From assembly GCA_014750165.1 (NCBI GenBank), contig GCA_014750165.1_4319.1: DNA of 45,917 nucleotides; one strand, given 5' to 3'. Each line of letters opens with the position of its first letter. Position 1 is the stretch's first letter. A model generated the notes under the pieces. It had not been told where the DNA came from. It searched no databases and was given only the letters and a program-made list of their open reading frames with translations. Source of the stretch: a phage. Made by a program: the position numbers and the translations under genes. This document shows positions 2,337-44,639 of this stretch, piece by piece.

Positions 2337-2340
2337 TTGC

Positions 2341-2359
2341 ATAGCACTTTTTGCTAAAG
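2341..2359 (+). promoter_or_regulatory. gene-boundary palindrome cassette, variant copy (ATAGCACTTTTTGCTAAAG)
   Basis: TAGCA-N5-TGCTA palindrome, then GTTAA..TTAAC hairpin around TATAGT, then CATCGAAACGA and RBS before small ORF 2418. Confidence 0.5.
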
Positions 2360-2417
2360 CGTTAATCCAGTCTTCCTGTATAGTTAACTCATCGAAACGA
2401 AATGAGAGACTAAAGAA

Positions 2418-7416: not shown

Positions 7417-7430
7417 CACTTTTTGTTAAG
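7413..7430 (+). promoter_or_regulatory. gene-boundary palindrome cassette, variant copy
   Basis: ATAGCACTTTTTGTTAAG followed by GCGCA..TGCGC inverted repeat; precedes HNH gene. Confidence 0.4.
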
Positions 7431-7482
7431 AGGAAGGCGCAGGAATGCGCTATCCTCTAATCTCTTAAACTGGAGATTAAAA

Positions 7483-7968
7483 ATGAACTGGAATGAAATT
7501 TTCGAATACAGAGATGGCAAGATTTATTGGAAAGTTAGCCCTGGCAGGAGGGCTAAGGTTGGTTCGGAAGCTGGATCAAATCAAATAAAAGGGTATAGAT
7601 TTGTGAAATTTCACGGAGTTTTATATATGACACACAGGGTTATTTGGGAGATGCATAACTGTGAAATACCGCATGGAATGGAGGTTGACCATTTAAATCA
7701 CATTAGGGACGATAACAGGATAGAGAATTTAAGAGTTGTTACAAAGTCAATTAATCAGAGGAATGCATCTAAAAGAATTGATAATAAAAGCGGTTTTACA
7801 GGCGTTTCTTGGTATCCCAAATATTCAAAGTGGAATGCTTACGCGACAGTAAATTCCAAGAGGTTTAATCTTGGTTACTTTGAATCAAAGCAAGATGCCT
7901 ATGTGGCTGTTAAAAAATTTAGGTCCATAAATGATTTTCATAAAAACCATGGAGTTGATTTATGTTAA
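7483..7968 (+). CDS. HNH homing endonuclease
   Basis: MNWNEIFEYRDGKIYWK...; HNH core EVDHLNHIRDDNRIENLR; ATG 7483 after GGAGA; paralogous to 27993..28485 and 34044..34535. Confidence 0.8.
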   Translation: MNWNEIFEYRDGKIYWKVSPGRRAKVGSEAGSNQIKGYRFVKFHGVLYMTHRVIWEMHNCEIPHGMEVDHLNHIRDDNRIENLRVVTKSINQRNASKRIDNKSGFTGVSWYPKYSKWNAYATVNSKRFNLGYFESKQDAYVAVKKFRSINDFHKNHGVDLC

Positions 7969-12772: not shown

Positions 12773-13742
12773 AGTAGAAGTTTGGAATAAATGGAAGTGC
12801 CATTGATATATTTGTGTCAAAAGGAAACTGAGCGCCTGTCTGAGTTGAGTAGTTACCTATTACAGATCCAGGAACAGCCCTAACGGAGCCACCAGACATA
12901 CAAACTCCCTTGTATCGTAAGTTGTTATACCCTCCGGTAACTCTAGTCGTAGCGCCGCACCTAAGTAGCGGGAAGAAACCACCATTTATTGACTGATATC
13001 CATTGCTTATTTGTATAAATCCACCAAGAACGAATGGTCGTCTAACGCTTGAAAAAACAATCTGACCAGAACTATTTGACATTGTGAGCCCTGGTCCTGC
13101 TGGTGGCGGTTCATTCCTGAATATCACTAACTGAACGTAAGTGCTTGCCGCCACGTCATCTATGCCACCATAGTTTACATCACGGCACCATATTGTACTA
13201 CCATCACTCTCCAGCGACACATTTGGGTTATCCCACTTACCAAATGGTATTCCGCTAACCGGTAGCGATGCTGCCCCGTTAACCTGTATTCCTCCAACCC
13301 ATGCTGCTGACATTAGTCTCGAGTTGCTTGATATGGCAAGGAAATCAGTTGAGTTCTCAACGAGTATGCCTGGACTTGATGAAGATGAAGCCGGTAGTAT
13401 CTCAAAGCAATTACCAGCAAAGTCAATTATTCTACCATTAGCACCATTGAAGTTGCTGAGCGTTATCCTGCCAGTTCCGTCATTTACCTTTTGAAACCCG
13501 TTCATGTAATAAACTTCGGGTATAACATCGTAAGCGTCAACGTGGACTGCCTTCGTTGGTAGGCAGAAAGCCGTAGAACCAGGTGACATTGTCAATCCAA
13601 AATCCCACGATATTGCTGGTGTTGAAAGTCCATTGGTATTTATTGATCCAGTCACAGCAGGTGCCCTTAATCCTGCCGTGATTTCCATCGCTGGTCTTCC
13701 GTCATTGAGGTCAATCAATATACCCTGCGGCATTATTTCCAC
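12771..13742 (-). CDS. putative tail fibre / receptor-binding protein
   Basis: 323 aa Gly/Ser/Asn-rich protein convergent with J; composition and position only. Confidence 0.35.
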
Positions 13743-13978
13743 TCCTTACTGCCGTGATCTGCAACAGAACCGCCGTAACCTCCGCCAGCTTTACTTTCAA
13801 TGCCAGCGTATCGAATATCAACCTCACCAGCAGGAACAACTACACCGCCTTTCCACTTAGCTACGCACACGCCGTTTGCTTGCGTTGCACACCAACCGTC
13901 CGGTCGAGGACCAGAAGAACAACCAACTGCCATGATTACTGCCGCTGCGATGATTGCTGATTTGATTAAGTTAGTCAT
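13733..13978 (-). CDS. small lipoprotein, Cor-like superinfection exclusion candidate
   Basis: Signal peptide with lipobox (IMAVGC); 81 aa; located next to tail fibre genes as cor is in T1/phi80-type phages; own upstream cassette. Confidence 0.45.
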
Positions 13979-14044
13979 TTTGTATTCCTTATTAAGTGCG
14001 TTTCGTTTCGATGGAGTAATAGTATCGCATCCTTGCGATCAGTG

Positions 14045-14065
14045 TTTAGCAATTAGTGCTATTCG
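14045..14065 (-). promoter_or_regulatory. gene-boundary palindrome cassette (minus orientation), upstream of cor-like gene
   Basis: Reverse complement reads GAATAGCACTAATTGCTAAA then CGCAAGG..TGCG hairpin, TACTAT, CATCGAAACGA; also supplies stop of the MTase-like gene. Confidence 0.5.
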
Positions 14066-14735
14066 CCAAAAATACAGCTCTTGCAAATCCACGAGGTGTA
14101 AGACTGCGAATTACCTTTGTTTTCTTGCTCTTCCCGCCTAGCTTCTTGTGCTGGTCTGAGTATCCATCATTAACGTCAACTGGTGAGGCATGAGGCCATT
14201 TAAACCCATTGCCAGACCAAATGCACGTCTTCTTAGGATATGCGTCTCTTGGCTTTATTAGGTCGCTAAAAAACGGGTGTAAATCATCTTCCGGCAAATA
14301 GCCTCCGTATTCGTAAGGGTGAAACGTGTTATCAGGTTTACGCCAGAGCGATGACAGCACGCTGACTGGGTTCTCAATCATGTATGGAACTCCGTATTTT
14401 TCAGCCAGTTTAAAAGCAACCTTGCAAGTCTCTGCCGCCTCAATTTGGAAGTTTTGGTTGGCTAGGCGCTTACGCTCAAAGTGTGCTGCCCCGCTCACGG
14501 CTAAATCCGTACAGGGCGGGAATGCCATGATAAAATCAGGCTTCACATCAAAATCAAAACTGGAATCTATCCAGGCGTTAACGTATGTAATGTTCTCATG
14601 TTCAACTCTTGCGTTTAAGTAGCTATAGCTCCCGTGGTCAGACTCATCAAAGTTGAAGCAGTAGCAAGTGTGACCAGCTTCAGCCCAATCCTTCACAGCT
14701 AGACCAGAACCATCAAATAAAGACCAGATAACTAT
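14046..14735 (-). CDS. DNA C5-cytosine methyltransferase-like protein (divergent)
   Basis: Motif IV-like FPPCT and motif VI-like IENP in track ORF 14046..14696; motif I-like SLFDGSG is encoded in the same frame just upstream (to stop at 14754-14756), where no ATG/GTG/TTG exists; 14735 is a candidate ATA start 7 nt after GAGGA. Confidence 0.5.
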   Translation of the reverse strand: MVIWSLFDGSGLAVKDWAEAGHTCYCFNFDESDHGSYSYLNARVEHENITYVNAWIDSSFDFDVKPDFIMAFPPCTDLAVSGAAHFERKRLANQNFQIEAAETCKVAFKLAEKYGVPYMIENPVSVLSSLWRKPDNTFHPYEYGGYLPEDDLHPFFSDLIKPRDAYPKKTCIWSGNGFKWPHASPVDVNDGYSDQHKKLGGKSKKTKVIRSLTPRGFARAVFLANSTNC

Positions 14736-14791
14736 TTTTAAATCCTCGTTAGTTTAAGTGCGGCGATTATACCGCACAGAATTTATTGTTC

Positions 14792-14810
14792 TTTAGCAAT
14801 TCGTGCTATT
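14792..14810 (-). promoter_or_regulatory. gene-boundary palindrome cassette (minus orientation), upstream of MTase-like gene
   Basis: Reverse complement AAATAGCACGAATTGCTAAAG; downstream TGCGG-TATAAT-CGCCGCA inverted repeat; overlaps Rha gene stop. Confidence 0.5.
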
Positions 14811-15453
14811 TCTTTTCCAGCAGCAGCTTGATGTCAATGCCGAGATTATTCTCAATCAATCCGGTCAGCGCATCATTCTTTTCTTTAAGGGCGAAGCATT
14901 GGGCTTCATATTTAAATCTCTCCTCCATCTCATCCGATCGACTAACCCAACATTGTCTAGCCTCACAAGCCAGCATATCGAGCTTTTCATCGGTATTCTT
15001 ATCCATGAGTAAAATCTCATTTATTCTTTGCTCTGCAACAATTCGCTGGCTCAGGTGTGCATTTTGCGCATTAGCCACACCAAGCATCATTCGAGCCTCT
15101 TTTAACTCATCAATGCTTACCATCTGGCTGATTACTTCTGCTTGCTTTTTAACTAATGCCTCCAGCTCATGAAGTCGACGGATTACTTTGTGTCGAAGCA
15201 CGACACTGTAGCCAGTGATTAGCGTTTCAGTGAGTTCCTTGTTGAGTAAAATCTCAGATGTATAGCCTCGATTGTCTGTAAGTAGTTGATAATCATCATG
15301 CCCCAAATCTGGGGCATCGTTATAATGTAACAATTCATTGATCATTTCCTTTGTGTCGCGAACGACGTGATCATGACGTTTGCCGGTTAACTCTGCGATT
15401 TCCTTTGTGCTCATCATGGTTTTTGGTTGTTCTTTGTACGCTTTAATGTTCAT
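14806..15453 (-). CDS. Rha-family phage regulatory protein
   Basis: STKEIAELTGKRHDHVVRDTKEM matches Rha-domain signature; start set at internal ATG 15453 (MNIKAYKEQ...) rather than track start 15534. Confidence 0.55.
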   Translation of the reverse strand: MNIKAYKEQPKTMMSTKEIAELTGKRHDHVVRDTKEMINELLHYNDAPDLGHDDYQLLTDNRGYTSEILLNKELTETLITGYSVVLRHKVIRRLHELEALVKKQAEVISQMVSIDELKEARMMLGVANAQNAHLSQRIVAEQRINEILLMDKNTDEKLDMLACEARQCWVSRSDEMEERFKYEAQCFALKEKNDALTGLIENNLGIDIKLLLEKK

Positions 15454-15548
15454 TTTAATCTCTCTATATGTTTTGACTTCGAAAATTTCGTATTCAAGCA
15501 GCACCATTGCCGCCATGAGCCTAAATATACCCAAAGATACCCAGTTGT

Positions 15549-15570
15549 CTTTAGCAAATCGTGCTATTTA
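15549..15570 (-). promoter_or_regulatory. gene-boundary palindrome cassette, variant (minus orientation)
   Basis: Reverse complement AAATAGCACGATTTGCTAAAG, 22 nt upstream of TATATT; upstream of Rha gene. Confidence 0.4.
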
Positions 15571-15664
15571 TAGCCAATTTCACCATAAATCACGGTTACA
15601 CGTAACCGATGTAACTCGATGTATACAATCTCATCCGCGGAAAATGATATACGCGCTGTTACGC

Positions 15665-15935
15665 CAATTTACGCAACAGTTACATTAAAATATCTATATA
15701 TATCAACCTTTTACTCTTATTATTATTATTATATATATTACTGTGTATATCATGTAACTACTTCTATAGAGTGTTCCGGTTATAATTTTAATATCATGTG
15801 ATTTTATACAGTATTGCACGGCAGCTATACCAATGCACCATCAGCAATAAATGATATACACGATATACACGCCGGTTACATTGAGCTATAGCTGGGCTTA
15901 GATGCCAAAAAACGTAACTAATGGCAATACCTACA
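15665..15935. repeat. AT-rich intergenic repeat copy A with (TTA)n tract
   Basis: Left arm ~95 bp and right arm ~50 bp closely similar by eye to 35041..35295; contains TTATTATTATTATTATATATATTACTGTGTATATCATGTAAC; strand-switch region. Confidence 0.6.
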
Positions 15936-16252
15936 CGGAATTACAAGGATTCACGCGTAAACTTAAATCAACGATTGGCAAAACCAATTGGACTGGCTAC
16001 GGTGACGAATATATAGTTAACCCATCGAAAGCAAGCAACCAGAGAGATATAGAAATGGTAAAGAAGATAGATTTGTACTCAGCTCACACCGTAATACTGC
16101 CTAGCTATGCTCCGGTTTTTATTGGTGTAACTTACGAAATAGCTCTTAAATTATGCGAGTCATCATATGGTAAAGACTGGAAAAATAAATCAATTAGAAT
16201 AGAAAAGACAACTAAAGAGCATATCGAAATCATCGTGGGGTTGCAAAAATGA
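15902..16252 (+). CDS. hypothetical early protein
   Basis: First gene after repeat A; 116 aa; no recognisable motif. Confidence 0.4.
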   Translation: MPKNVTNGNTYTELQGFTRKLKSTIGKTNWTGYGDEYIVNPSKASNQRDIEMVKKIDLYSAHTVILPSYAPVFIGVTYEIALKLCESSYGKDWKNKSIRIEKTTKEHIEIIVGLQK

Positions 16253-16443
16253 CATACTACATTATCAAAGAGAAAAACAACGCACTGTTCGGCGACTGCT
16301 ACTTTGGTGGTCCGGCTGGGTACACAACAGATAAGAGCGAGGCTGACAGATTCGAGACGAAAGAAGAAGCCCGTGATGTACTGACCGGTTACTTCACTGA
16401 AGAAGATTTGAAGTCTGTTAAAGTGGTTAAGATCAAGGGGTGA
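16249..16443 (+). CDS. hypothetical early protein (acidic, 64 aa)
   Basis: ATGA-coupled to upstream gene. Confidence 0.4.
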   Translation: MTYYIIKEKNNALFGDCYFGGPAGYTTDKSEADRFETKEEARDVLTGYFTEEDLKSVKVVKIKG

Positions 16444-16446
16444 GTT

Positions 16447-17412
16447 ATGAGATTTAAGGTTTTTACTCGAGAGGAACTAAGCAACGAGGCTTACCACTCA
16501 GAGACTGAACACATCTCCGGCAGCTCACTTGTTGAGATTATCCAGGGCTCACCAGCTAAGTGGAAATTCAAACAACGTAACAATGATAGCAAGGCTCTTA
16601 AGTTTGGCACACTAAGCCACACGATGATTCTCGAGCAAGATGTATTCGACAAGGAGTATCTTCGAGCTACAGATCTTGATGCGATTGAAGGATTAATTAC
16701 AAGTCAGACCGGATTGGCCTCAGCACTTAAAAAAGTTGGTGTAGCTGGCACGTCCGGTAAGGGGTATAGCGAGCTAGTAGAGATGATGCATCGCTCTGGT
16801 GAGGATTGGCCTGTTAAGTGGCTAATTGAGCAGCAGGAGAGCGCTCAGGCGCTCGTGGAGGGTAAAGAGCTAGTTAGTGCAGCGGACTATGACAAAGTGG
16901 TAGCGATGCGTGAGGTTCTTTGCAACATTCCAGCATATGATGCAATCGTGAACAGCGAGACGGCGCAGAAAGAGCTATCAATCTTCGGTGAGATTCTAGG
17001 TGTTGGCGTTAAGATTCGAATCGACCATGTTGATGTTGTTGATGGAGTCGTTCGGATCACAGATTATAAAACTACCGCAGACGCTAGCCCGGAAGGATTT
17101 GGTAAGTCGGCTTTTAATCACGGATACCTTGCAAAAATGGCGCTTCAGCGCGACCTGTTTGTGAAGGCATTCAACGAGAAGAGAAAGGTTATTGTAGGAT
17201 TGCTGGCGCAGGAGAAGGTAGAGCCATATTTACCAATGCTGTACACCTTGACGGACGAACAGCTACGAATTGGTCGTCTCCAGTATCTTGAGGCGCTCGC
17301 CACTTACAAGAAGTGCAAGGAGCTAGATATCTGGCCTGGATATTCGAACGGCATTACAGAGCAAGAATTGATGATTCCTGAGTGGGCGTTAAAACAATAT
17401 AAAGAAATCTAA
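16447..17412 (+). CDS. recombination exonuclease, PD-(D/E)xK family
   Basis: IRIDHVD...ITDYKT matches D...(D/E)xK nuclease core; located upstream of ERF and SSB genes. Confidence 0.55.
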   Translation: MRFKVFTREELSNEAYHSETEHISGSSLVEIIQGSPAKWKFKQRNNDSKALKFGTLSHTMILEQDVFDKEYLRATDLDAIEGLITSQTGLASALKKVGVAGTSGKGYSELVEMMHRSGEDWPVKWLIEQQESAQALVEGKELVSAADYDKVVAMREVLCNIPAYDAIVNSETAQKELSIFGEILGVGVKIRIDHVDVVDGVVRITDYKTTADASPEGFGKSAFNHGYLAKMALQRDLFVKAFNEKRKVIVGLLAQEKVEPYLPMLYTLTDEQLRIGRLQYLEALATYKKCKELDIWPGYSNGITEQELMIPEWALKQYKEI

Positions 17413-17430
17413 ATAGCACGAATTGCCAAA
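17411..17430 (+). promoter_or_regulatory. gene-boundary palindrome cassette
   Basis: AAATAGCACGAATTGCCAAA, GGGAT..ATCCC hairpin around TATAGT; precedes ERF gene. Confidence 0.5.
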
Positions 17431-17485
17431 ACAAAGCGGGATGACTTAGGTATAGTTATCCCATCAACAACGAACGAGGTTAAAG

Positions 17486-21259: not shown

Positions 21260-21279
21260 AAATAGCACGAATTGCTAAG
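21260..21279 (+). promoter_or_regulatory. gene-boundary palindrome element in inverted orientation relative to downstream minus-strand gene
   Basis: AAATAGCACGAATTGCTAAG on + strand between primase-like gene end and tailspike start. Confidence 0.4.
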
Positions 21280-21325
21280 TTGGATTGTAGCATCTTTCAG
21301 GTATAAAAAAACCTCCCGAAGGAGG

Positions 21326-22307: not shown

Positions 22308-22781
22308 TTACCCTTTAGCTTTTCGTGCTGCCTCGTTAGCGGCCTTAATCTTGCGCCATGATCGACACTCTGGCTTGGTGGCTAACTCAGCCTCAGTAAC
22401 CACGCGTAGCATGTGACGCTTTTTGCACCGGAGTGTCAGTGGCTTGCCGTTACCGTCAAATTGCAGGTCTGGTCGGCAGAATGTAGCACGAAAACCCTCT
22501 CCGTTTCGTTTGTAGTAGTTGTGCGACAGTTGAGCACCGCGCGCAGAAATCATACCACGCTTAAACCATTCTTCTACAGCCTGCGGAGTTACCTTTAACT
22601 TCTTTGCAATATTCGCCTTTGTGACGAAGAAATCAAGGAGCATCTCAAGCCGCGCGCGTAGCCCGGCTCTTACTTCATCTTTTAAAACGTAGTAGCCTGA
22701 AGGTCGTTTACGTTGTTTTTTGTCTTCAGTGCGGATAGTTCCGTTATTACCGTTAGTGGTTCGCTTGTCAACTGCATTCAT
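22308..22781 (-). CDS. HTH DNA-binding protein (putative transcriptional regulator)
   Basis: Basic N-terminus and helix-turn-helix-like segment KKLKVTPQAVEEWFKRGMIS; divergent from helicase gene. Confidence 0.5.
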   Translation of the reverse strand: MNAVDKRTTNGNNGTIRTEDKKQRKRPSGYYVLKDEVRAGLRARLEMLLDFFVTKANIAKKLKVTPQAVEEWFKRGMISARGAQLSHNYYKRNGEGFRATFCRPDLQFDGNGKPLTLRCKKRHMLRVVTEAELATKPECRSWRKIKAANEAARKAKG

Positions 22782-24877: not shown

Positions 24878-25293
24878 ACATAACAGATAAAGAATATTAC
24901 ATTGAGTTTTACCCAGGTTCAGTTAAGTCATGCCCGAAAGAGGATGACGAACAAATCTTTTGCTCTGATTGGGTTAAGTATAACTATCCAGAGATGGTAT
25001 TTTTCCACTGTGTGAATGAGGGTAAGAAAACCATTGGTCAAGCAAGAAAAGACCAGGCAAAGGGTTTGCTCAAGGGCGTATCAGACTGCATGTTTTTGAT
25101 ACCTGAATCCGTGCGAGGAAGGTATCCATTTGGCGCAATAGAGCTAAAGAGAGCTGGAAAAACACAGGCTAGCCCAGTCAGTAACGAGCAGAAGTCATTC
25201 CTGAAAAGTGTAAGGGAATCAGGAGGTTTCTCCGCTGTGGCTTACGGTCGCGAGGGTTTTCTGGCAGCATTCAAAGAAATGATTTCTAAATAG
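24874..25293 (+). CDS. VRR-NUC domain nuclease
   Basis: 139 aa; D...ELK core (FLIPESVRG...AIELKRAGK) of the PD-(D/E)xK VRR-NUC type; GTG start overlapping helicase stop. Confidence 0.6.
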   Translation: MNITDKEYYIEFYPGSVKSCPKEDDEQIFCSDWVKYNYPEMVFFHCVNEGKKTIGQARKDQAKGLLKGVSDCMFLIPESVRGRYPFGAIELKRAGKTQASPVSNEQKSFLKSVRESGGFSAVAYGREGFLAAFKEMISK

Positions 25294-25308
25294 CACGAAT
25301 TGCTAAAC
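25288..25308 (+). promoter_or_regulatory. gene-boundary palindrome cassette
   Basis: AAATAGCACGAATTGCTAAAC then TATAGT and CATAGAAACGA; precedes 25371. Confidence 0.5.
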
Positions 25309-25370
25309 TCGATTTTAAAAGATGTTGTATAGTTACTTCATAGAAACGAAACACATAGAGAGATAAAGAA

Positions 25371-25577: not shown

Positions 25578-25580
25578 TTA

Positions 25581-25599
25581 ATAGCACGAATTGCTAAAG
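25581..25599 (+). promoter_or_regulatory. gene-boundary palindrome cassette
   Basis: ATAGCACGAATTGCTAAAG then hairpin around TATTAT and CATCGAAACGA. Confidence 0.5.
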
Positions 25600-25660
25600 A
25601 CTAATCGGTGAGGTGGTGTATTATCACCACATCGAAACGAAACGCAGAGAGATAAACAAA

Positions 25661-26448: not shown

Positions 26449-26700
26449 ATGTTGGGTTTAGATTTTCAGCCAGAGCATTACGATTTAGCATATGGTAAAA
26501 GTGGTGCAAAGTTTAGAGCGATCCCTATTGCTGACTGGTTCCCTCCTGATTATGTGGATGTGAACGCAAAAACTAAAGACGGCAATTGGGTGCAGATTTA
26601 TTACTCGCCAGCATGTGGAAACCTTTGTATGACTGACCTTGATCAGAAATTAGCAATTAGTGCGGAAGTTATCGACTACTGGTTGAAAGAAGTTGAATGA
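26449..26700 (+). CDS. hypothetical protein
   Basis: ATG 26449 after AAGGA; track start is a TTG 6 nt upstream. Confidence 0.4.
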   Translation: MLGLDFQPEHYDLAYGKSGAKFRAIPIADWFPPDYVDVNAKTKDGNWVQIYYSPACGNLCMTDLDQKLAISAEVIDYWLKEVE

Positions 26701-26783: not shown

Positions 26784-27920
26784 ATGGCAACTGCAAAAAT
26801 CACTAACGAAGAGCTGCGTGAAGAGCTTGCTAATGGCATGACAAACAAGGCAATCGCAGAGAAATACGGAATGAACATTCGCAACGTTGAATTGCGTCGT
26901 AGTAAATTGGCAAAGAGTGGAGAATTGCACGGAAACCCAGGTATCAAGAAGTTAGTTCCTGACGGTTATATGGTTAAGGGAACCTCCACGATGATTGATG
27001 CGGATGGTAACGAGAAGCTGCGCTGGGTTAAAACCTCTGTAGACAATGAGCGACTTGAGGTTTTAATGGAGCAAGCTCGAGAAGCATTTTGCTCTGATTT
27101 GCCAAAGGCTATTCCATCTGAATCACCGAATGTTAACTTTGATGATAACACGCTTGCGATGTATCCAGTTTTTGATTTACACATTGGGGCGATGGCTCAC
27201 AAACATGAGTGTGGCGAAAACTATGATACAGCAACAGCAGAGAAAGTAATGAATGGGTTCTTTGACTACGCTGTTGATAAGGCTCCAAACTCTAAGAATG
27301 CTGTATTGGTATTGGGTGGTGATTTCCTGCATTACGACTCTCTGGAGGCTAAAACCCCGGCATCAGGTCATATCTTAGATTCTGACAGTCGTTACGCCAA
27401 GATTGTTTATGTTGCAATCCGGTCAGTGCGTCGTGCCATTTCTCGAATGATGGAAAAGCACCAAGTTATTGAAATTAAAGTAATAAGTGGCAATCACGAC
27501 GAGGCAGGAATGGTTTGGCTCCGCGCTGCACTTGCTGCATTTTATGAAGATGAGCCTCGCGTAAATGTTGATGTTAGCCCAGCCGCAATGATGATGACCA
27601 GCTTTGGAACGACGCTTATTGGATACACTCACGGGCACCAAATGCGGAAAGCCGATACTCGACTAACTGTTATGGCAACTGATTTTCGTAAGTTATTTGG
27701 CCAAAGTGAGTATGTTTACACACATAGTGGCCACTGGCATTCGCAGAAGATTACAGAAACAAACTTGGGAATTGATGAGGTTCATGGGCAGCTTGGAAGC
27801 CCTGACGCGTACTCCGCAAATGGCGGTTGGCGTTCTCAACGTCAAGCGGCAGTCATTGTCTACCATAAAGAATTCGGTGAAGTTGGCCGATTCATTTGTC
27901 GCCCTAAAATGTTTGGCTAA
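26784..27920 (+). CDS. HTH-fused calcineurin-like metallophosphoesterase
   Basis: N-terminal HTH-like TNKAIAEKYGMNIRNVELRRSKL; MPP motifs D-x-H (FDLHIG), GDxxD (GGDFLHYD), GNHDE, THGH, GHWH. Confidence 0.65.
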   Translation: MATAKITNEELREELANGMTNKAIAEKYGMNIRNVELRRSKLAKSGELHGNPGIKKLVPDGYMVKGTSTMIDADGNEKLRWVKTSVDNERLEVLMEQAREAFCSDLPKAIPSESPNVNFDDNTLAMYPVFDLHIGAMAHKHECGENYDTATAEKVMNGFFDYAVDKAPNSKNAVLVLGGDFLHYDSLEAKTPASGHILDSDSRYAKIVYVAIRSVRRAISRMMEKHQVIEIKVISGNHDEAGMVWLRAALAAFYEDEPRVNVDVSPAAMMMTSFGTTLIGYTHGHQMRKADTRLTVMATDFRKLFGQSEYVYTHSGHWHSQKITETNLGIDEVHGQLGSPDAYSANGGWRSQRQAAVIVYHKEFGEVGRFICRPKMFG

Positions 27921-27940
27921 TAGCGCTTTTTGTTAAAACG
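27919..27940 (+). promoter_or_regulatory. gene-boundary palindrome cassette, variant
   Basis: AATAGCGCTTTTTGTTAAAACG then ATACCCGC..GCGGGTAT hairpin, ATCGAAACGG. Confidence 0.4.
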
Positions 27941-27992
27941 ATACCCGCGAAAGCGGGTATTATTGTTTTATCGAAACGGCAGGGGGATTGAA

Positions 27993-28485
27993 ATGAATTG
28001 GCATGATTTTTTTATACTATAAGGATGGAAAGGTTTTCTGGAGAGATCCGCACTGCACGAGATTGAAGCCAGGTGATGAGGCTGGTAGTAGGCACCATAG
28101 GGGTTATTGGTATATTCGTAGATATGACAAAACAATGTCAAGGCACCGAATCGTATGGGAGATGCACAACGGAACAATACCAGACGGTATGGAGATAGAT
28201 CATATAAATCACGTGCCTGGTGATGACAGAATTGAAAACCTAAGAATGGTCACAAGAAGGCAAAACAATCAAAACAAAAAATTAAATGAAAGAAATACAA
28301 GCGGACACGTCGGGGTTAGCTGGAACAAGAAGACAAACAAATGGAGAGCAATGATAGGCATAAGGGGAGAGGACGGAAAGAGGAAAACTTTATACGTTTA
28401 TTATGGTGATTCTTTCGATGATGCGGTATCAGCAAGAAAGAAAGCAGAGGCTGAGCACTCGTTTCATGAAAATCACGGTAAATAG
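27993..28485 (+). CDS. HNH homing endonuclease, interrupted by frameshift at T7 tract
   Basis: ATG 27993 with strong RBS (AGGGGGA) encodes MNWHDFF then stops; HNH body (track 28003..28485) is in +1 frame; an 8th T would restore MNWHDFFLYYKDGKVFW, matching the paralog N-terminus MNWNEIFEYRDGKIYWK. Confidence 0.7.
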
Positions 28486-28501
28486 CACTTTTTGCCTAAC
28501 T
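28481..28501 (+). promoter_or_regulatory. gene-boundary palindrome cassette, variant
   Basis: AAATAGCACTTTTTGCCTAAC then ATGCCG..CGGCAT hairpin and ATCGAAACGA. Confidence 0.4.
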
Positions 28502-28555
28502 CATGCCGTAGAAATGCGGCATAATCACCAAATCGAAACGAGATGAGGAATTGTA

Positions 28556-29031: not shown

Positions 29032-29586
29032 ATGACTAAATTATTTATCCTTAATGGCCCAGCTGGAGTTGGCAAGGACACTATAGCCGATATCATGGTT
29101 GAGACTGGTGTCGCCAAAGAAAAGGTATCATTCAAGTCACCAATGTTTAACGTTGTAAAAGGAATGCTATCAAGCGATGAATTTGATGGATTCATCAAGA
29201 ATTACGACAATAGAGACTATAAGGAATCACCTCATGGATTTCTTAGCGGTATGACAGTTCGTGAATTTATGATTTGGATTAGCGAGTCTGTAATGAAGCC
29301 AGTCTTTGGTGATGATGTTTTCGGTAAAAGGCTAGCACAGTCACTTGGTGATGGTTGCTACATTTGCGCTGACGGTGGGTTTGCTAGCGAGATTAAGCCA
29401 CTGATCGACACTGGTGTTGAGGTAACGTTAATCAGGTTGCATAGGGAAGGGTACACATTTTATGGCGATAGTCGCTCATACATTCACGGTGTGTGTGCAA
29501 GAGAGATTGATGTTCATGTTGTTGATGGTGATATTAATGGAACATCAGCATTGGTAAGGCACGTAATAAATAGCACGAATTGCTAA
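29032..29586 (+). CDS. P-loop nucleotide kinase (dNMP kinase-like)
   Basis: N-terminal LFILNGPAGVGKDT Walker A resembling phage deoxynucleotide monophosphate kinases; start set at second ATG by RBS spacing. Confidence 0.6.
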   Translation: MTKLFILNGPAGVGKDTIADIMVETGVAKEKVSFKSPMFNVVKGMLSSDEFDGFIKNYDNRDYKESPHGFLSGMTVREFMIWISESVMKPVFGDDVFGKRLAQSLGDGCYICADGGFASEIKPLIDTGVEVTLIRLHREGYTFYGDSRSYIHGVCAREIDVHVVDGDINGTSALVRHVINSTNC

Positions 29587-29588
29587 AG
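29568..29588 (+). promoter_or_regulatory. gene-boundary palindrome cassette
   Basis: AAATAGCACGAATTGCTAAAG, TATCAT, CATCGAAACGA; supplies NSTNC-stop tail of kinase. Confidence 0.5.
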
Positions 29589-29654
29589 ATAATATTAAAA
29601 ACTGGGTTATCATTAACACATCGAAACGAGATGAACCAAACGAGGAAAAACAAA

Positions 29655-30178: not shown

Positions 30179-30664
30179 ATGAAGCAGAAGCTGCTACTTA
30201 GCGCAGTTACGGCTGCGGCAATATACATCGCAGCGCCGCTTATTGAACTCGTTGAGGGTGTGGAGAACAAGCCTTACATGGACATTGCCGGAATACCTAC
30301 AGTCTGCGCGGGTATCACTGGTCCTGACGTAGTTTGGGGTAAAACATACAGCAACAGGGAGTGCCGTAACCTGCTGGAGAAACACATTCAGATTCATGGG
30401 GAGCATGTTCAGGATGCGGTTACCTACCCAATTGCACCGCAGACAAGGGCGGCGTTAATCAGCTTTAGCTACAATGTTGGCGGTTCAGCGATGAGGAAGT
30501 CTACGGCTGTTAAGTTGATTAACCAGGGTAATATTGAGCAGGGTTGCAATGCCCTCGGTATGTGGAATAAAGCTACCATTAATGGTAAGAAGGTTGTCGT
30601 TAAGGGGTTAGTGAATCGCCGGAATGAGGAGATTAAGTTATGCTTAAGTGGATTGCAGCGTTAG
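30179..30664 (+). CDS. SAR endolysin (lysozyme-like)
   Basis: N-terminal signal-anchor-release-like hydrophobic segment followed by catalytic region ELVEGVENKPYMDIAGIPTVCAGITG typical of phage lysozymes. Confidence 0.8.
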   Translation: MKQKLLLSAVTAAAIYIAAPLIELVEGVENKPYMDIAGIPTVCAGITGPDVVWGKTYSNRECRNLLEKHIQIHGEHVQDAVTYPIAPQTRAALISFSYNVGGSAMRKSTAVKLINQGNIEQGCNALGMWNKATINGKKVVVKGLVNRRNEEIKLCLSGLQR

Positions 30665-31382: not shown

Positions 31383-32966
31383 TCACCCCAGCAGTCGTGG
31401 ATTAATGTAAACTTTATCACCAATCAGGCAAGTATAGTTTTTCTCATCAAGCATTGGCAGTAAGTGATCTTTAATCTTCGTCATTACTCCAGCCTGAGCC
31501 TCGAATGGCTTAACCTTGCGAGCAGCTTCATACAATGAACGAATACCAACTACGCCCTTCCCGTTTTTCCCTTGCTTGATCAGGATATCAATCAGCTTAT
31601 TCATCTCGGCATTGTCGCCAGCGTGACCAGCTGCGCTGGCAGATGACAGGTAAGTCTTGCTTAGTTCCTGGAACATGATTACAGCTTCTTGCATGGTATC
31701 AAGTTCAATCTCTCTGGATTTCTGCGGACTCCCACCGTTAGGGTTGAACCAGTTACGAACAGCATGAAGAACGGCTGCAATCCTGATGGCCTGTTTATCG
31801 AACTTGCCCAGGGCACCACGTAACATTGTGTGTGAATACTTCCCGCCATCAGCAAGGTGAGGTTCCATTTCTTGGCGCGCTCGGTTGAGGTACTTCATCG
31901 CTGAGTTGCTTACTGTCAGCTTAACATCTTGCTCATTCATTATCTCATGAACTAAGCGGAAGTAATCAGCCTTTAGTCCACCATCAATTGGCTCGTAAGT
32001 TGAGTCTCCATTCTCATCAACAAATACACGCTCGCCCAGGAATGATTTTTCACGTACAAGCAGAAAACGCTCAGATACACCGATACCACGCGCACCGGCA
32101 TTCATGATTGCATTGATTGTTTCGTCTTGCGCAATTACAGAGATGCAACCCAAAGCAACGAAGCTCATGTTGTTCTCTGCGTTAGCACGCGCAATAGATA
32201 CGTTACCCGCATCCCATGCTTTAAGCACTAGTTCGCTGTTCGTTTTCTTTGAGCCATCACCATAGGTCATGCCAAGCAGTGAGTTCACGCTCGTTGCTTC
32301 ATCCGAGATTACAGCAAAGTTACCCTGACGGTTGTTTATTCGCGCAAGACCTTCCGGCGTGGTATCGGACACGGGGAAAACGATATCGCATAGCTTCTCG
32401 AGCTTCTCCTCTAACTCCTCTTTCTCCTCAAAAAGTGAGGCCATCTCTGATGGTGACTTTTCCTGTTTCATCTCTTTTGATAATGCAGACAGCTTTGCCA
32501 TAATCTTTTTACGCTCACGCTTTCGCACTTCATTCAGCCGCTCAGTCTCAGCAATCATTGGAGCAATTGAAAGTGAGTTAATTGCTGATTTACCTGTCGA
32601 TGGCGGCTGGCTTGTCACGACATAAAGCGAAGTTGGCTGCTGAGTTCCGTGATACTCAACAGTGAATCGACCAAGCATTGCAGCGGAAATACACCCCAGG
32701 AAGTGCATATATGCGGACGACTCAGGAAACTGAACAGAACGAGCAATATTGGCTGACAGCTTACCAACAACATCAATATCATTGCCTAGTGAGATTACAG
32801 GGTACTTGTCATTAGCCGCATCAATCTCTACAGGTGCCTTCCAGAATGATTGAGACTGGCGATAGCCATTGGCATTAATAGCCACGCGCAGGGGTGGGAG
32901 GTTGTCTGCGGCTGCAATTGCCATAACCTGTTCAACAGATAGCTTATCTTCGTTGAAATCAAACAT
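31383..32966 (-). CDS. putative replication ATPase (primase C-terminal DUF3987-like P-loop domain)
   Basis: Deviant Walker A TSQPPSTGKSA and Walker B FAVISDEAT; 527 aa; family assignment from motif recall only. Confidence 0.45.
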   Translation of the reverse strand: MFDFNEDKLSVEQVMAIAAADNLPPLRVAINANGYRQSQSFWKAPVEIDAANDKYPVISLGNDIDVVGKLSANIARSVQFPESSAYMHFLGCISAAMLGRFTVEYHGTQQPTSLYVVTSQPPSTGKSAINSLSIAPMIAETERLNEVRKRERKKIMAKLSALSKEMKQEKSPSEMASLFEEKEELEEKLEKLCDIVFPVSDTTPEGLARINNRQGNFAVISDEATSVNSLLGMTYGDGSKKTNSELVLKAWDAGNVSIARANAENNMSFVALGCISVIAQDETINAIMNAGARGIGVSERFLLVREKSFLGERVFVDENGDSTYEPIDGGLKADYFRLVHEIMNEQDVKLTVSNSAMKYLNRARQEMEPHLADGGKYSHTMLRGALGKFDKQAIRIAAVLHAVRNWFNPNGGSPQKSREIELDTMQEAVIMFQELSKTYLSSASAAGHAGDNAEMNKLIDILIKQGKNGKGVVGIRSLYEAARKVKPFEAQAGVMTKIKDHLLPMLDEKNYTCLIGDKVYINPRLLG

Positions 32967-33585: not shown

Positions 33586-33637
33586 TTCTCATCTCCCGTT
33601 TCGATGGAAAGATAATACCGCATCCTTGCGATTTCGT

Positions 33638-33654
33638 TTTAGCAATTCGTGCTG
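33638..33654 (-). promoter_or_regulatory. gene-boundary palindrome cassette (minus orientation)
   Basis: Reverse complement CAGCACGAATTGCTAAA then CGCAAGG..GCG hairpin, TATTAT, CATCGAAACGG. Confidence 0.5.
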
Positions 33655-33799
33655 TTGCGCGCCCTTTCTATCGCCTTGAGCATAATTTCGTGACTTTCCA
33701 GTAAATCCTCTCGGAACCAATCCCCGCAAGGCCAACCATTTCCGCTGTAAGCTGCGATGGTGCAAAGATCGTAATAGTTAATATCTGATGGTAGTAGCA

Positions 33800-34043: not shown

Positions 34044-34535
34044 CTACCTCATTCCGCTGTTCTTGTGGTATTTCGCATTAACCTCAGCAACAATCCTCGC
34101 CTCGCAAGCACAGATAAAGTCTATGAATGTTCCTAAACATACAATTTTCCCATCTATGCTAATTCTTGCCGACCACTTACCTCTAACATCCATGTTCACA
34201 CCAGTTACCCCTGGCTTTCTTCTTACATACCTTTTGAGATTCTTATGATTTTCCATGTGGCTAACTAGCCTTAAGTTTTCAATCCTATTATCAGACCTAT
34301 CTCCATTAATGTGGTCGATCTGCATTCCTTTTGGTATATCTCCGTTGTGAATAATCCAGACCGCTCGATGGCAATAAATTAGCTTATTCTTAACCCTAAA
34401 TGCCTTGTATCCATGGCTATGCATGCAGCCAGCCTCGTCACCAACTTTTACTTGGGATGAGTTATACTTTCTGTAAAGTTTCCCATCCTTATACTCTACG
34501 GCGTTTACAATATCCTCAACTAGAATGGCACACAT
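34044..34535 (-). CDS. HNH homing endonuclease
   Basis: HNH core QIDHINGDRSDNRIENLR; paralog of 7483 and 27993 genes. Confidence 0.8.
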   Translation of the reverse strand: MCAILVEDIVNAVEYKDGKLYRKYNSSQVKVGDEAGCMHSHGYKAFRVKNKLIYCHRAVWIIHNGDIPKGMQIDHINGDRSDNRIENLRLVSHMENHKNLKRYVRRKPGVTGVNMDVRGKWSARISIDGKIVCLGTFIDFICACEARIVAEVNAKYHKNSGMR

Positions 34536-34696
34536 GATTCACACCCCCAATCCCCACAACAGAAATCTTCATCCTCTGACTGGAATTGCTTAGCCAAATC
34601 AATATCCAACTTTCCGCGGACAACAATTTCGGTGTAATCTTCGTTAAGTCCGATCAGCGCGCATTCGTGGCGTAACTCGTCTTTATCAATCTTCAT
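34520..34696 (-). CDS. hypothetical small Cys-rich protein (58 aa)
   Basis: MKIDKDELRHECALIG...FCCGDWGCESCVPF; ends 16 nt inside HNH start; cassette upstream; approx coords. Confidence 0.3.
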   Translation of the reverse strand: MKIDKDELRHECALIGLNEDYTEIVVRGKLDIDLAKQFQSEDEDFCCGDWGCESCVPF

Positions 34697-34748
34697 ATCT
34701 ATCTCCTCGTTTTGATGAGTTAACTATATCCTCCATGACCCCCAATGT

Positions 34749-34770
34749 CTTTGGCAAAAAGTGCTATTCG
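34749..34770 (-). promoter_or_regulatory. gene-boundary palindrome cassette, variant (minus orientation)
   Basis: Reverse complement CGAATAGCACTTTTTGCCAAAG then TATAGT and CATCAAAACGA. Confidence 0.4.
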
Positions 34771-35040
34771 TTAGATTTATTGATTGTTGCATATATTGCA
34801 ATGATTATCATGACTATTGCACATATGGCAATATTGCTTCAGATGCAATGATGTTTTTGATTGTTGCGAAAAGTGAAATGAAGTGGTGAGTGAGTGAATG
34901 AAAGATGGATGGACTACCATACAAGTTGATTTTTATTCTTGCTGAGCCATTTTCACGCATACGCGTTATAAAAGTTATGCCTTGTGGATGATGCCACCCT
35001 CCGCAGTAATCGTGCACGCCTATAACGCTGAATTACGCAA

Positions 35041-35295
35041 TGGTTACACTATAATATCTATATATAACAACCATTTAGTATAATTATTATTATTATATAT
35101 ATTACTATGTATATCATGTAACCACGCATCCGGCGGGGGTCGATAGTTTTTCTATGAAAATGACATTTTCTATATATATAAGGATAGGCATATACCCTCC
35201 CCGATTTCCGCGGAAATCCATACACAGGCAAATTACATACGCTATAGCTGGGCTGAGGTAGCAAAAAGCGTAACCGGGGCCAATATAAACACGAA
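35041..35295. repeat. AT-rich intergenic repeat copy B with (TTA)n tract and relic gene start
   Basis: Arms match 15665..15935; right arm retains an ATG-less in-frame relic (GTAGCAAAAAGCGTAACCGGGGCCAATATAAAC) of the 15902 gene start. Confidence 0.6.
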
Positions 35296-35372
35296 ATAAC
35301 ACTTGATAACGTGTATATGTGTGTTATTATGGATTCATCTTAACGAAGGGCAACCAATCAGGAGTAATGAAT

Positions 35373-35891
35373 ATGTCAGAACATAAAGAAGCAGTAAGTC
35401 TCGGTGAGGTGGTTCGTTACATGGCTGGCCAGGCTTTGGCTAGCGATAATAAATCATTTGCGGTTCCATTGCGCATGATCGTACAGCAAGTGTATGGACT
35501 TGATAAAGTGGATATGATGAGGGTGTACGAAGAGGACCTTACGCCTGGTGGTAAGTATCATCTCAAGAAGCTGAAGGCATCATACGTTTCAAACACAGTA
35601 AGCCGCATGCCTGAAATCAAAGCTGCTAACGTCCGGTCCATGTTCTCACTGAAGGACATGGAGTTTAATGAGGAGGAAGTTCGATGTGCGGTAATCTCAC
35701 TTGTGCCAGGCGCTATCAATACCGGGTCGCGTAACAAAGCAGAAGCAGAGAAGGAGGCGGCTATCATTGAAAAATTCAAGAAGCGACTCTTATCCGTTAC
35801 GCCAAGCGTCATTCACTTGAAAGGTGAGGAGCTTCAGGGTGCAATGTTCGCACTGTCCGCATACCAGGAACTTATTAAGGAGACAAAGTAA
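35373..35891 (+). CDS. hypothetical early protein
   Basis: Start at MSEHKEAV after AGGAG; first gene after repeat B. Confidence 0.45.
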   Translation: MSEHKEAVSLGEVVRYMAGQALASDNKSFAVPLRMIVQQVYGLDKVDMMRVYEEDLTPGGKYHLKKLKASYVSNTVSRMPEIKAANVRSMFSLKDMEFNEEEVRCAVISLVPGAINTGSRNKAEAEKEAAIIEKFKKRLLSVTPSVIHLKGEELQGAMFALSAYQELIKETK

Positions 35892-35987: not shown

Positions 35988-36215
35988 ATGCTTATAAAAT
36001 GCGTGTATGCAAGGCAAGCCAATCACCACAACCTTTCAGTTGTAAATGGTGGGATATACTCGGCAAAGCCAATCACTCGCTTTAATGGCTCATACTACAT
36101 CAAGGTTGATGGCAATGAGTACATGGTGAAGACGATAGGTGAAGCTCTTATGATAAAAAGCCTTGGCGTCATAATGGCTAAATTCGAAATCTTTCACAAT
36201 AGCACTAATTGCTAA
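35988..36215 (+). CDS. hypothetical protein
   Basis: 75 aa; C-terminal NSTNC-stop supplied by palindrome element. Confidence 0.35.
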   Translation: MLIKCVYARQANHHNLSVVNGGIYSAKPITRFNGSYYIKVDGNEYMVKTIGEALMIKSLGVIMAKFEIFHNSTNC

Positions 36216-44528: not shown

Positions 44529-44639
44529 TAATTAAGATATATAAAGCCTCCTTCGGGAGGTTTTTTTATACCATTGCGTGGGCTAAAAACTCGTGTATAA
44601 TGAATCCGTAGACACCTAACTGAAAAGGAACAATAAAGA

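Follow-up and report, generated by a model that had tools for sequence, protein, structure and literature searches.

A 14-bp palindrome in a T1-like coliphage is the left-most pair of a GTTAC-core site array around a melt-prone AT block

The origin of the satellite phage P4 consists of two separated loci, ori and crr, both of which carry short iterons (TGTTCACC) in both orientations that are read by the alpha primase-helicase. In the lambda origin, the iterons adjoin an AT-rich block. T1-like phages form a family that is a notorious laboratory and fermentation contaminant. In the literature on these phages that we searched there is no mapped origin, no transcriptome and no account of the GTTAC motif described here, which is concentrated around the most melt-prone DNA of the genome in three Drexlerviridae subfamilies. 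A 21-nt element (aaATAGCACnnnTTGnTAAAA) of unknown function has been described for TLS, T1 and Rtp (PMC11447400). Like this repeat, the GTTAC motif is a reiterated non-coding element of Drexlerviridae, but the two differ in sequence and in distribution. The 21-nt repeat is dispersed, with more than 15 copies, one per gene or operon and oriented with transcription, whereas the GTTAC motif is concentrated in one hub and occurs in both orientations.

The DNA analysed here (the window, 45,917 nt in its entirety) comes from a T1-like siphophage of E. coli (Drexlerviridae, Braunvirinae). The nearest phages are of the Guelphvirus, Veterinaerplatzvirus and Rtp types, with ~90-93% nucleotide identity around the locus, and relatives were compared by alignment and by an anchor-based survey of IMG/VR and GenBank loci. 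Two non-coding hubs, referred to as regions 1 and 2, are both points of divergent transcription (Table 1), and the second is where the Rtp and T1 records have their ends. An earlier note, made from the sequence alone, had singled out a palindrome in hub 1 and half-sites dispersed in both hubs as an operator-like arrangement, possibly for the Rha-family protein or for a helix-turn-helix (HTH) protein.

Table 1. Features of the two hubs and their surroundings (window positions)
Feature	Position	Strand	Remarks
cor-type lipoprotein gene	13733-13978	leftward	left of hub 1
DNA methyltransferase gene	14046-14696	leftward	left of hub 1
Rha-family gene	14806-15453	-	215 aa; PF09669, 36 bits against a cut-off of 29.9; phrog_8235
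Hub 1 (region 1)	15454-15901		448 bp, non-coding; contains the palindrome
T1-like 21-nt element copy, aaATAGCACnnnTTGnTAAAA	15548-15571	-	ahead of the Rha gene; with promoter-like AAGACA-N16-TATATT
Inverted repeat GGTTAC-AC-GTAACC, GGTTACACGTAACC	15594-15607		exact match; two head-to-head GTTACR copies
Left arm GGTTAC	15594-15599	+	solely in genomes with a Rha-type cassette
Backbone left cluster CGTAACC-GA-TGTAAC-TCGAT-GTATAC	15601-15626	-	copies 9-10 bp apart
Phased direct repeats ATACGC / GTTACGC / TTTACGC / GTTACAT	15645-15684	+	read from the sequence
Repeat A, copy 1	15656-15761	+	paralogue at 35020-35125, 85% identical
Extreme AT-rich block in repeat A	15680-15745		one of the genome's two least stable 60-mers
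TGTAAC	15753-15758	-	directly right of the AT block; kept in 18/18 related sequences
GGTTACA	15874-15880	+	inside the conserved island GTTACAYTSAGC
Second paralogous hub segment	15885-15945		against 35241-35301, 75% identical
Rightward operon	15902-16252, 16249-16443, then exonuclease VIII (recE), Erf, SSB	+	right of hub 1
CGTAAC	15913-15918	-	overlaps the start of gene 15902-16252
Hub 2 (region 2)	34697-35372		between leftward and rightward early gene blocks
GGTTACA	35042-35048	+	region-2 copy of repeat A; kept in Rtp as AGTTACA
TGTAACC	35117-35123	-	region 2; not conserved
CGTAACC	35269-35275	-	region 2; not conserved, CGTAGAC in Rtp

The palindrome was found exactly where the earlier note had placed it. 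As a dyad, it is ordinary: the window contains 13 inverted repeats of the 6+2+6 type where ~11 are expected (45,917 x 4^-6), so the dyad alone is not evidence of anything, and it is neither longer nor rarer than chance, as a dyad operator would be. Near-copies with up to three mismatches (five in the window, 2.1 expected) do not form a family. The palindrome has no similarity to the 21-nt ATAGCAC element, a true copy of which adjoins it, the palindrome lying 23 nt upstream of that copy. Its earlier placement in the Rha-side leader was imprecise: the palindrome is upstream of the predicted Rha promoter (minus strand, 15551-15524), with its centre at about -83 from a start site that is itself inferred from this prediction. 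The palindrome is the left-most pair of an array of GTTACR sites.

It is the clustering of the half-site, not the dyad, that constitutes the real signal. All eight GTWAC pentamers between 15594 and 15918 fit YGTAAC/GTTACR, and these eight sites in 350 bp of hub 1 are the window-wide maximum, the mean being 0.46. When the 61 genomic sites were placed at random, none of 20,000 placements reached eight. Dinucleotide-preserving shuffles of region 1 gave 0.61 +/- 0.76 sites (maximum five), and the enrichment of the motif over shuffled sequence is thus far beyond chance in this region. Region 2 is marginal, with three sites against 0.60 (P = 0.017). GGTTACA is not enriched genome-wide (seven copies, 4.4 expected), but the two hubs, together 2.4% of the window, contain four of the seven. 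The hubs also hold 10 of the 12 non-coding motif sites, only two being found in the ~2.4 kb of other non-coding DNA, which includes other promoter regions. An unbiased k-mer scan of region 1 in the window, T1, SH6 and Opt-719 ranked GTTACA first or within the top three of the enriched 6-mers.

The half-sites reported earlier exist. The one at about 15875 is GGTTACA at 15874-15880, while the two in region 2 had been placed ~10 nt off, at 35052 (GGTTACA, 35042-35048) and 35280 (CGTAACC, 35269-35275). Copies that had been overlooked are TGTAAC at 15610, 15753 and 35117, GTTACG at 15658, GTTACA at 15679 and CGTAAC at 15913. The backbone left cluster is in the opposite orientation to the left arm of the palindrome. 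The cores of the phased direct repeats (15649, 15659, 15669 and 15680) are 10-11 bp apart; their TTACGC/ATACGC and GTTACA elements are kept in Braunvirinae and Rogunavirinae, and a paralogous phased-repeat array is present in region 2 (35009-35048). Spacing is 9-11 bp within two sub-arrays (15601-15626 and 15649-15684), irregular overall, and not kept in T1 and SH6.

Many of the individual sites are conserved. The backbone left cluster was detected in 18 of 18 distinct related sequences, which were fetched with this 15-mer as the anchor, and also lies within the BLAST matches of phages that lack Rha. Sites 15679, 15753 and 15875 are conserved islands among 18 distinct Braunvirinae and Rogunavirinae sequences. 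The island GTTACAYTSAGC is kept even where the preceding 100 nt are unalignable (Rogunavirinae), three of the 18 related sequences have TTTACA at the position of GGTTACA, and T1 has a counterpart, GGTTACAAGTGTTAC, at a comparable place. GTAAC sites are likewise found directly right of the AT blocks of T1 and SH6. The site at 15913 is kept in Braunvirinae and reads CGTATT in Rogunavirinae. Of the three region-2 sites, Rtp lacks those at 35117 and 35269, within flanks that are ~90% identical; at the first of these positions Rtp has TGTATAT.

In a BLAST search with the hub, many relatives match only from query position 143, which corresponds to window position ~15597, inside the palindrome, and it is here that homology with cassette-less phages begins. 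Cassette-less genomes (Rtp, 2725-N35, ETEP102, AKS96 and others) read ...GTGCTATT-(G/A)(T/C)ATAC(A/G)-CGTAACCGATGTAAC..., and cassette genomes read ...GTGCTATTTATcGCCAATTTCACCATAAATCAC-(G/A)GTTAC(AC/GC)-GTAACCGATGTAAC...; in short, RYATAC(A/G)CGTAACC in the former and (G/A)GTTAC(AC/GC)GTAACC in the latter. At the left-arm position, RYATAC and GGTTAC are identical at four of six bases and differ at two. As the two junction forms share their right side, the right arm belongs to a backbone common to all relatives, and the palindrome straddles a mosaic junction. The perfect dyad owes its existence solely to the (G/A)GTTAC that cassette genomes have, in place of RYATAC, beside the backbone CGTAACC. 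Cassette-bearing relatives keep the palindrome as GGTTACAC-, AGTTACAC- or GGTTACGC-GTAACC (AGTTACAC in L055, L107 and L111; GGTTACGC, which gives a fully symmetric 14-mer, in L108). This conservation is uninformative, because the flanks are equally conserved. Among these genomes the GTTAC core is constant, whereas the palindrome differs in its outer G and at its centre. Conservation thus concerns the 5-6 bp core in either orientation, and not a dyad operator.

The Rha-family gene is a neighbour of the array and lies outside the array proper. The motif hub is kept in Rtp and T1, both without a Rha homologue (INDEPENDENCE from Rha): tblastn found none in Rtp (best E ~6) and none in T1. The orthologous hub of Rtp has seven sites in 350 bp, and the cor-recE hub of T1 (Tunavirinae), which is not among the BLASTN matches to the window's intergenic region, has eight, seven of them TGTAAC/GTTACA; both are genome-wide maxima. 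In SH6, we detected seven sites in 525 bp against five in 6.5 kb of flanks. T1 and the window also share the order of features, namely a left cluster of two to three sites, a CCGCGG-like stretch, the AT block, a site directly right of it, and further sites. PaulSarasin (Tempevirinae) and Klebsiella phage K50 keep the architecture without any GTWAC in the hub; in these two, AACAAA is the most enriched motif and occurs around the AT block in both orientations. The array is a backbone feature of the T1-like phages of Tunavirinae, Braunvirinae and Rogunavirinae and does not depend on Rha. The broader idea, in which the two hubs carry protein-binding sites made of one reiterated short motif, is supported in region 1, by strong local enrichment and by conservation across three Drexlerviridae subfamilies, and is only marginal in region 2.

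Motif sites bracket the AT block on both sides. By nearest-neighbour dG, the least stable 60-mers of the window start at 15680 and 35048 (-56.1 and -55.3 kcal/mol), against a background of -81.0 (mean; sd 4.8) and a next lowest value of -66. In each of four phages (the window, Rtp, T1 and PaulSarasin) the AT blocks rank as the two lowest 60-mers in stability, both over 5 sd away from the mean. The adjacent melt-prone, AT-rich block expected of an iteron origin is thus present in all four. The other feature expected, at least four clustered copies of one short motif, is present as well (eight in 350 bp; Rtp and T1 alike).

We put at about one half the probability that the palindrome represents two abutting, opposed copies of the GTTAC core at the left edge of a Rha-independent, putative protein-binding array around the AT block, either origin-like or another nucleoprotein hub. 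That the array is a real functional element is a conclusion in which we have fair confidence. The array fills the large stretch of non-coding DNA that separates the leftward genes (cor, methyltransferase and Rha) from the rightward recE-erf-ssb operon, and the GTTACR copies would be sites for one sequence-specific protein, not Rha and probably phage-encoded. That the motif is lineage-specific while the architecture is conserved points to a phage protein co-evolving with its site rather than to a host factor. Sites on either side of an easily melted AT block would correspond to the layout of iterons flanking the DNA-unwinding element of a replication origin; at minimum, they may form a nucleoprotein hub.

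Of the individual mechanisms, an origin-like one ranks first, with a probability of about one in three, and an operator array at early promoters comes second. Tentatively, both hubs (15.56-15.93 kb and 34.9-35.3 kb) may be T1-like replication origins, or a pair of origin and enhancer like P4 ori/crr, with the GTTACR sites, including those of the palindrome, as iterons for a phage initiator. As in the P4 and lambda iteron origins, many copies of a short motif in both orientations are clustered beside a melt-prone AT block, and each genome has a pair of related non-coding loci (15.6 kb and 35.0 kb), as in P4 ori/crr. Like P4, the phage encodes a DUF3987 helicase and a primase that carries the primase-helicase zinc-ribbon domain (PF08273), and the homologous primase of T1 is annotated as similar to a P4-type alpha replication protein. 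The use of a different motif by other subfamilies, with the architecture unchanged, is a further likeness to iteron origins. Unlike the P4 and lambda origins, the array has no initiator found to co-vary with it, irregular spacing, a core of 5-6 bp and few copies in region 2. True iteron arrays are usually more regular, and T1 and the window do not share their spacing. The AT block and the TTACGC/TTACAC repeats recur in region 2, which nevertheless has few GTTAC sites, two of them not conserved.

A protein that binds the array would be expected to follow the motif, and we therefore looked for proteins whose window version resembles that of T1 more closely than that of PaulSarasin. No such excess was seen for the HTH protein (22308-22781, homologue of T1 gp23), the primase, the DUF3987 helicase (gp09; 31383-32966) and the second helicase, either overall or per 40-residue segment. 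The HTH protein, to which the sites had also been tentatively assigned, could not be tied to the motif by co-variation, and a cognate initiator was not found among these four proteins, which speaks against the binding-array and origin readings. The sole outlier is a gp16 phosphoesterase homologue (26784-27920), 87% identical to that of T1. It was rejected as the binder, as BEK1-1 has the same hub, yet its gp16 is only 45% identical. Three small proteins are present in T1 and Rtp and not in PaulSarasin (26449-26700, 37984-38280 and 38752-38934); they have no annotated domain. The C-terminal 130 residues of the helicase, in which a P4-alpha-like origin-binding domain was sought, gave a single-sequence model too poor to use (pLDDT 50.6), and a PDB sequence search gave no match.

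Should the array prove to be an origin or a master control hub, it would be a concrete target, open to mutation, in the search for the family's initiator or regulator, and it would help to explain how Rha and methyltransferase cassettes slot in beside the hub. Under the origin reading, the switch to AACAAA in PaulSarasin and K50 would record co-evolution of initiator and iterons.

The next reading, which we consider doubtful, is that the GTTACR sites bind a phage regulator of divergent early promoters in or beside the AT block, with the palindrome as the highest-affinity dyad beside the Rha promoter. As in lambda OL/OR-type operator regions, there are repeated sites in a divergent control region and one dyad near a regulator-type gene, and transcription diverges from both hubs. 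Weak promoter-like matches occur in the AT block of the window (TTTACT-N18-TATATT, 15710-15739, and leftward ones), and promoters have been annotated there by others in EC3a, ETEP102 and AKS96. An operator role around early promoters is therefore possible, and sites 15679 and 15753 would be at about -64 and +10 of the promoter predicted in the block. However, the matches number five against 3.3 in shuffles. Consensus sigma-70 promoters are found instead at the right hub edge, ahead of recE, in T1 (TTGACT-N16-TATAAT, 30319-30346) and in PaulSarasin, and T1 has a leftward promoter-like sequence at the left edge, facing cor (TTGCAA-N17-TACAAT, 29908-29880); promoter prediction inside the AT block of these two phages found none. 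The best predicted promoters of region 2 in the window are also at the edges (35303-35330 on the plus strand, 34751-34723 on the minus strand). With consensus promoters at the edges and weak AT-block matches no commoner than in shuffles, the central 400-550 bp seems unneeded as promoter. The motif is also missing from other promoter regions, and no regulator co-varies with it. Unlike in lambda OL/OR, most of the sites are isolated cores of 5-6 bp rather than 14-17 bp dyads, relatives have their consensus promoters at the hub edges, and no cognate repressor is known.

It is less probable still that the palindrome is functionless as such, a side effect of the insertion of a cassette, or of recombination, next to a backbone site, or, in the extreme form, that the whole cluster is a neutral relic. 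A dyad that does not exceed chance, that sits on a homology breakpoint and that forms an unremarkable hairpin is consistent with this explanation. The extreme form is unlikely, given that three genomes with otherwise diverged hubs all have their motif maximum in this cluster and that individual sites are conserved islands. The mild form, with the dyad contributing no more than its two sites would, is compatible with the binding array preferred here.

A host protein could also be the binder, although we regard this as improbable. The OmpR F1 site (TTTACTTTTGGTTACATATT) was the basis of this lead, in which the phased GTTAC/TTTAC/GTTAC repeats (15658-15684) and GTTACA would be bound by a winged-helix regulator of the OmpR/ArcA type or by another host protein. 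We also noted resemblances to Tus/Ter, GntR, EvgA and BirA sites, with matches confined to the 5-6 bp core. The direct repeats at 15658, 15669 and 15679, 10-11 bp apart, their paralogous set at 35022-35048, and the finding that no phage protein co-varies with the motif agree with a host factor. Yet PaulSarasin infects E. coli K-12 and has a hub without GTWAC, the 10-11 bp phasing is not kept in T1 and SH6 (spacings of 19, 15 and 18), and the sites are in both orientations.

The original model, in which the palindrome autoregulates Rha and the dispersed half-sites are auxiliary, is more improbable again. The perfect dyad is confined to genomes with a Rha-type cassette and is upstream of the Rha promoter-like element, and the PF09669 domain is annotated as that of a regulatory protein. 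But the right arm and all other sites are present in Rtp, T1, SH6, 2725-N35 and ETEP102, which lack Rha, and the sites do not co-occur and co-vary with the Rha gene as an operator would with the gene of its regulator. At the same locus, some relatives (L107 and L108) encode a protein whose N-domain fails PF09669 and is 13% identical to that of Rha, although hhalign still calls the two homologous (95.5% probability). The C-domain is swapped in L111, and AugustePiccard keeps the Rha N-domain with a different C-domain. The left arm, as GGTTAC or AGTTAC, persists both with the divergent N-domain allele and with the swapped C-domain. Given hubs that keep the cluster without Rha, a right arm and downstream sites that belong to the backbone, and a left arm that survives these allele swaps, the assignment to Rha is contradicted. 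The outer dyad base also varies (AGTTAC in L055, L107 and L111), the inferred centre would not lie over the predicted promoter core, and a 6+2+6 dyad is expected by chance.

An RNA hairpin on the minus strand (CGGUUACGUGUAACCG, then UGAUUUAU), which as a terminator or attenuator would end leftward read-through ahead of the Rha promoter, was flagged by a consensus scan (six pairs, three G-C, loop of four) and can be dismissed together with cruciform and structured-RNA readings: folding is like that of shuffles (RNA z = -0.22; DNA hairpin only -4.7 kcal/mol, z = -1.57), the minimum-energy fold does not cleanly use the dyad, the tail is T-poor, and Rfam gave no match in 15400-16000 at E up to 5 and, in 34650-35400, a single sub-threshold, chance-level match to OrzO-P (18 bits against a gathering score of 60).

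Other short elements of the hub were considered. GTTACA was rejected as a -35 hexamer, as by eye no copy is followed 16-18 nt downstream by an acceptable -10 element and the promoter scan lists none. A perfect IHF core (TATCAACCTTTTA) is found at 15702-15714; it is conserved neither in Rogunavirinae nor in the region-2 copy and was given no weight. A second family of enriched k-mers in region 1, TATACA, mostly as GATATACRC, ranks beside GTTACA/TGTAAC.

In all four Drexlerviridae genomes compared (the window, Rtp, T1 and PaulSarasin), a ranking of 60-bp duplex segments by stability puts the AT blocks of both large non-coding hubs in the two lowest places. In these genomes the AT blocks lie more than 5 standard deviations off the mean, and the third-ranked segment is well apart. 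Their positions are listed in the table, together with those of the repeated motifs and genes described below.

GATATACRC is the second motif to recur in region 1, the hub between the Rha-family gene and the rightward operon with recE, and is frequently fused with a copy of the GTTAC motif (GTTACR/YGTAAC), the short motif clustered in this hub, into a composite of about 20 bp, namely GATATACGCGCTGTTACGCC at 15645 and GATATACACGCCGGTTACATT at 15859. The top enriched 6-mer of region 1 is TATACA in both the window and Rtp. Region 1 also holds TCCGCGGA (15634-15641), and region 2, the second non-coding hub, holds a perfect 14-bp palindrome, ATTTCCGCGGAAAT (35204-35217). Most relatives from the Braunvirinae and Rogunavirinae retain a CCGCGG-centred stretch at the matching position, as does region 2 of Rtp.

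Coordinates of AT blocks, repeated motifs and HNH genes
Feature	Genome	Position	Strand
AT blocks	window	15680-15745, 35048-35110	
AT blocks	Rtp	28089, 220	
AT blocks	T1	30010, 214	
AT blocks	PaulSarasin	21263, 42732	
GATATACRC	window	15645-15653, 15850-15858, 15859-15867	
GATATACRC	window	15743-15751	minus
AAATAGCACGAATTGCTAAA element	window	2338-2401, 17409-17465, 21260-21289, 25287-25350, 25578-25641, 27917-27980, 28479-28542, 29567-29630, 36195-36251, 36829-36892, 37963-38019, 41137-41200	
AAATAGCACGAATTGCTAAA element	window	14043-14064, 14790-14811, 15548-15569, 33636-33657, 34748-34769	minus
HNH homing-endonuclease-type genes	window	7423-7968, 28003-28485, 34044-34535	

The left part of region 2 (34770-34875) is dense in TTGATTGTTGC and TTGCAAT/ATTGCA repeats. 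Its counterpart in T1 consists of GATTGTTGC repeats near the start of the T1 record, the place to which its annotation assigns the terminal repeat, and both sets of repeats are candidates that may represent packaging (pac) or terminase-binding signals. At the right edge of the hub, before its first rightward gene, 35303-35350 comprises a predicted promoter and leader, TTGATA-N16-TATTAT GGATTCATCTTAACGAAGG. This resembles the recE promoter and leader of T1 (30319-30375, TTGACT-N16-TATAAT GGATTCATCGTAAACGAAGGAG), and the resemblance suggests that window region 2 and T1 recE have one early promoter and leader type in common.

Another element, AAATAGCACGAATTGCTAAA, occurs in more than 15 copies in the window, always in the orientation of the downstream gene, and corresponds to the 21-nt repeat described for TLS, T1 and Rtp (PMC11447400). 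Each copy is followed, about 20-22 nt downstream, by TATAGT-like hexamers and CATCGAAACGA. The gap between TTGCTA and TATAGT in this element is 22 nt, which exceeds ordinary -35/-10 spacing.

The Rha-type gene (14806-15453) is modular, as found by comparing it with loci L107, L108, L109 and L111 from the survey of the hub in relatives. Its C-terminal two-thirds also follow an N-domain allele that is 13% identical and does not pass PF09669 (the 'KilA protein' of CY1 and metagenome contigs), and in AugustePiccard the Rha N-domain precedes an unrelated C-terminus. Escherichia phage 2725-N35 (MN840485.1) is without the Rha cassette at the region-1 hub and matches the window hub query only from query position 143 (94.8% identity); it is therefore not the same genome as the window.

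The phosphoesterase or 'DNA repair exonuclease' gene at 26784-27920, a homologue of T1 gp16, is 87% identical to T1, against 35-60% for most other proteins common to the window and T1. Other close relatives (BEK1-1) carry a version that is 45% identical, so the gene is exchanged between lineages. In some database records the homologues of this phosphoesterase are annotated as 'sigma-70 region 4' or 'winged helix-turn-helix' proteins.

Elsewhere in the window, CCTCCTTCGGGAGGTTTTTTTATACC forms a perfect 26-nt inverted pair (21300-21325 and 44547-44572), that is, two identical terminator-like hairpins on opposite strands with 23 kb between them. Two of the three HNH homing-endonuclease-type genes have a 100-nt stretch in common (7645-7744 and 28156-28255, 71% identity).
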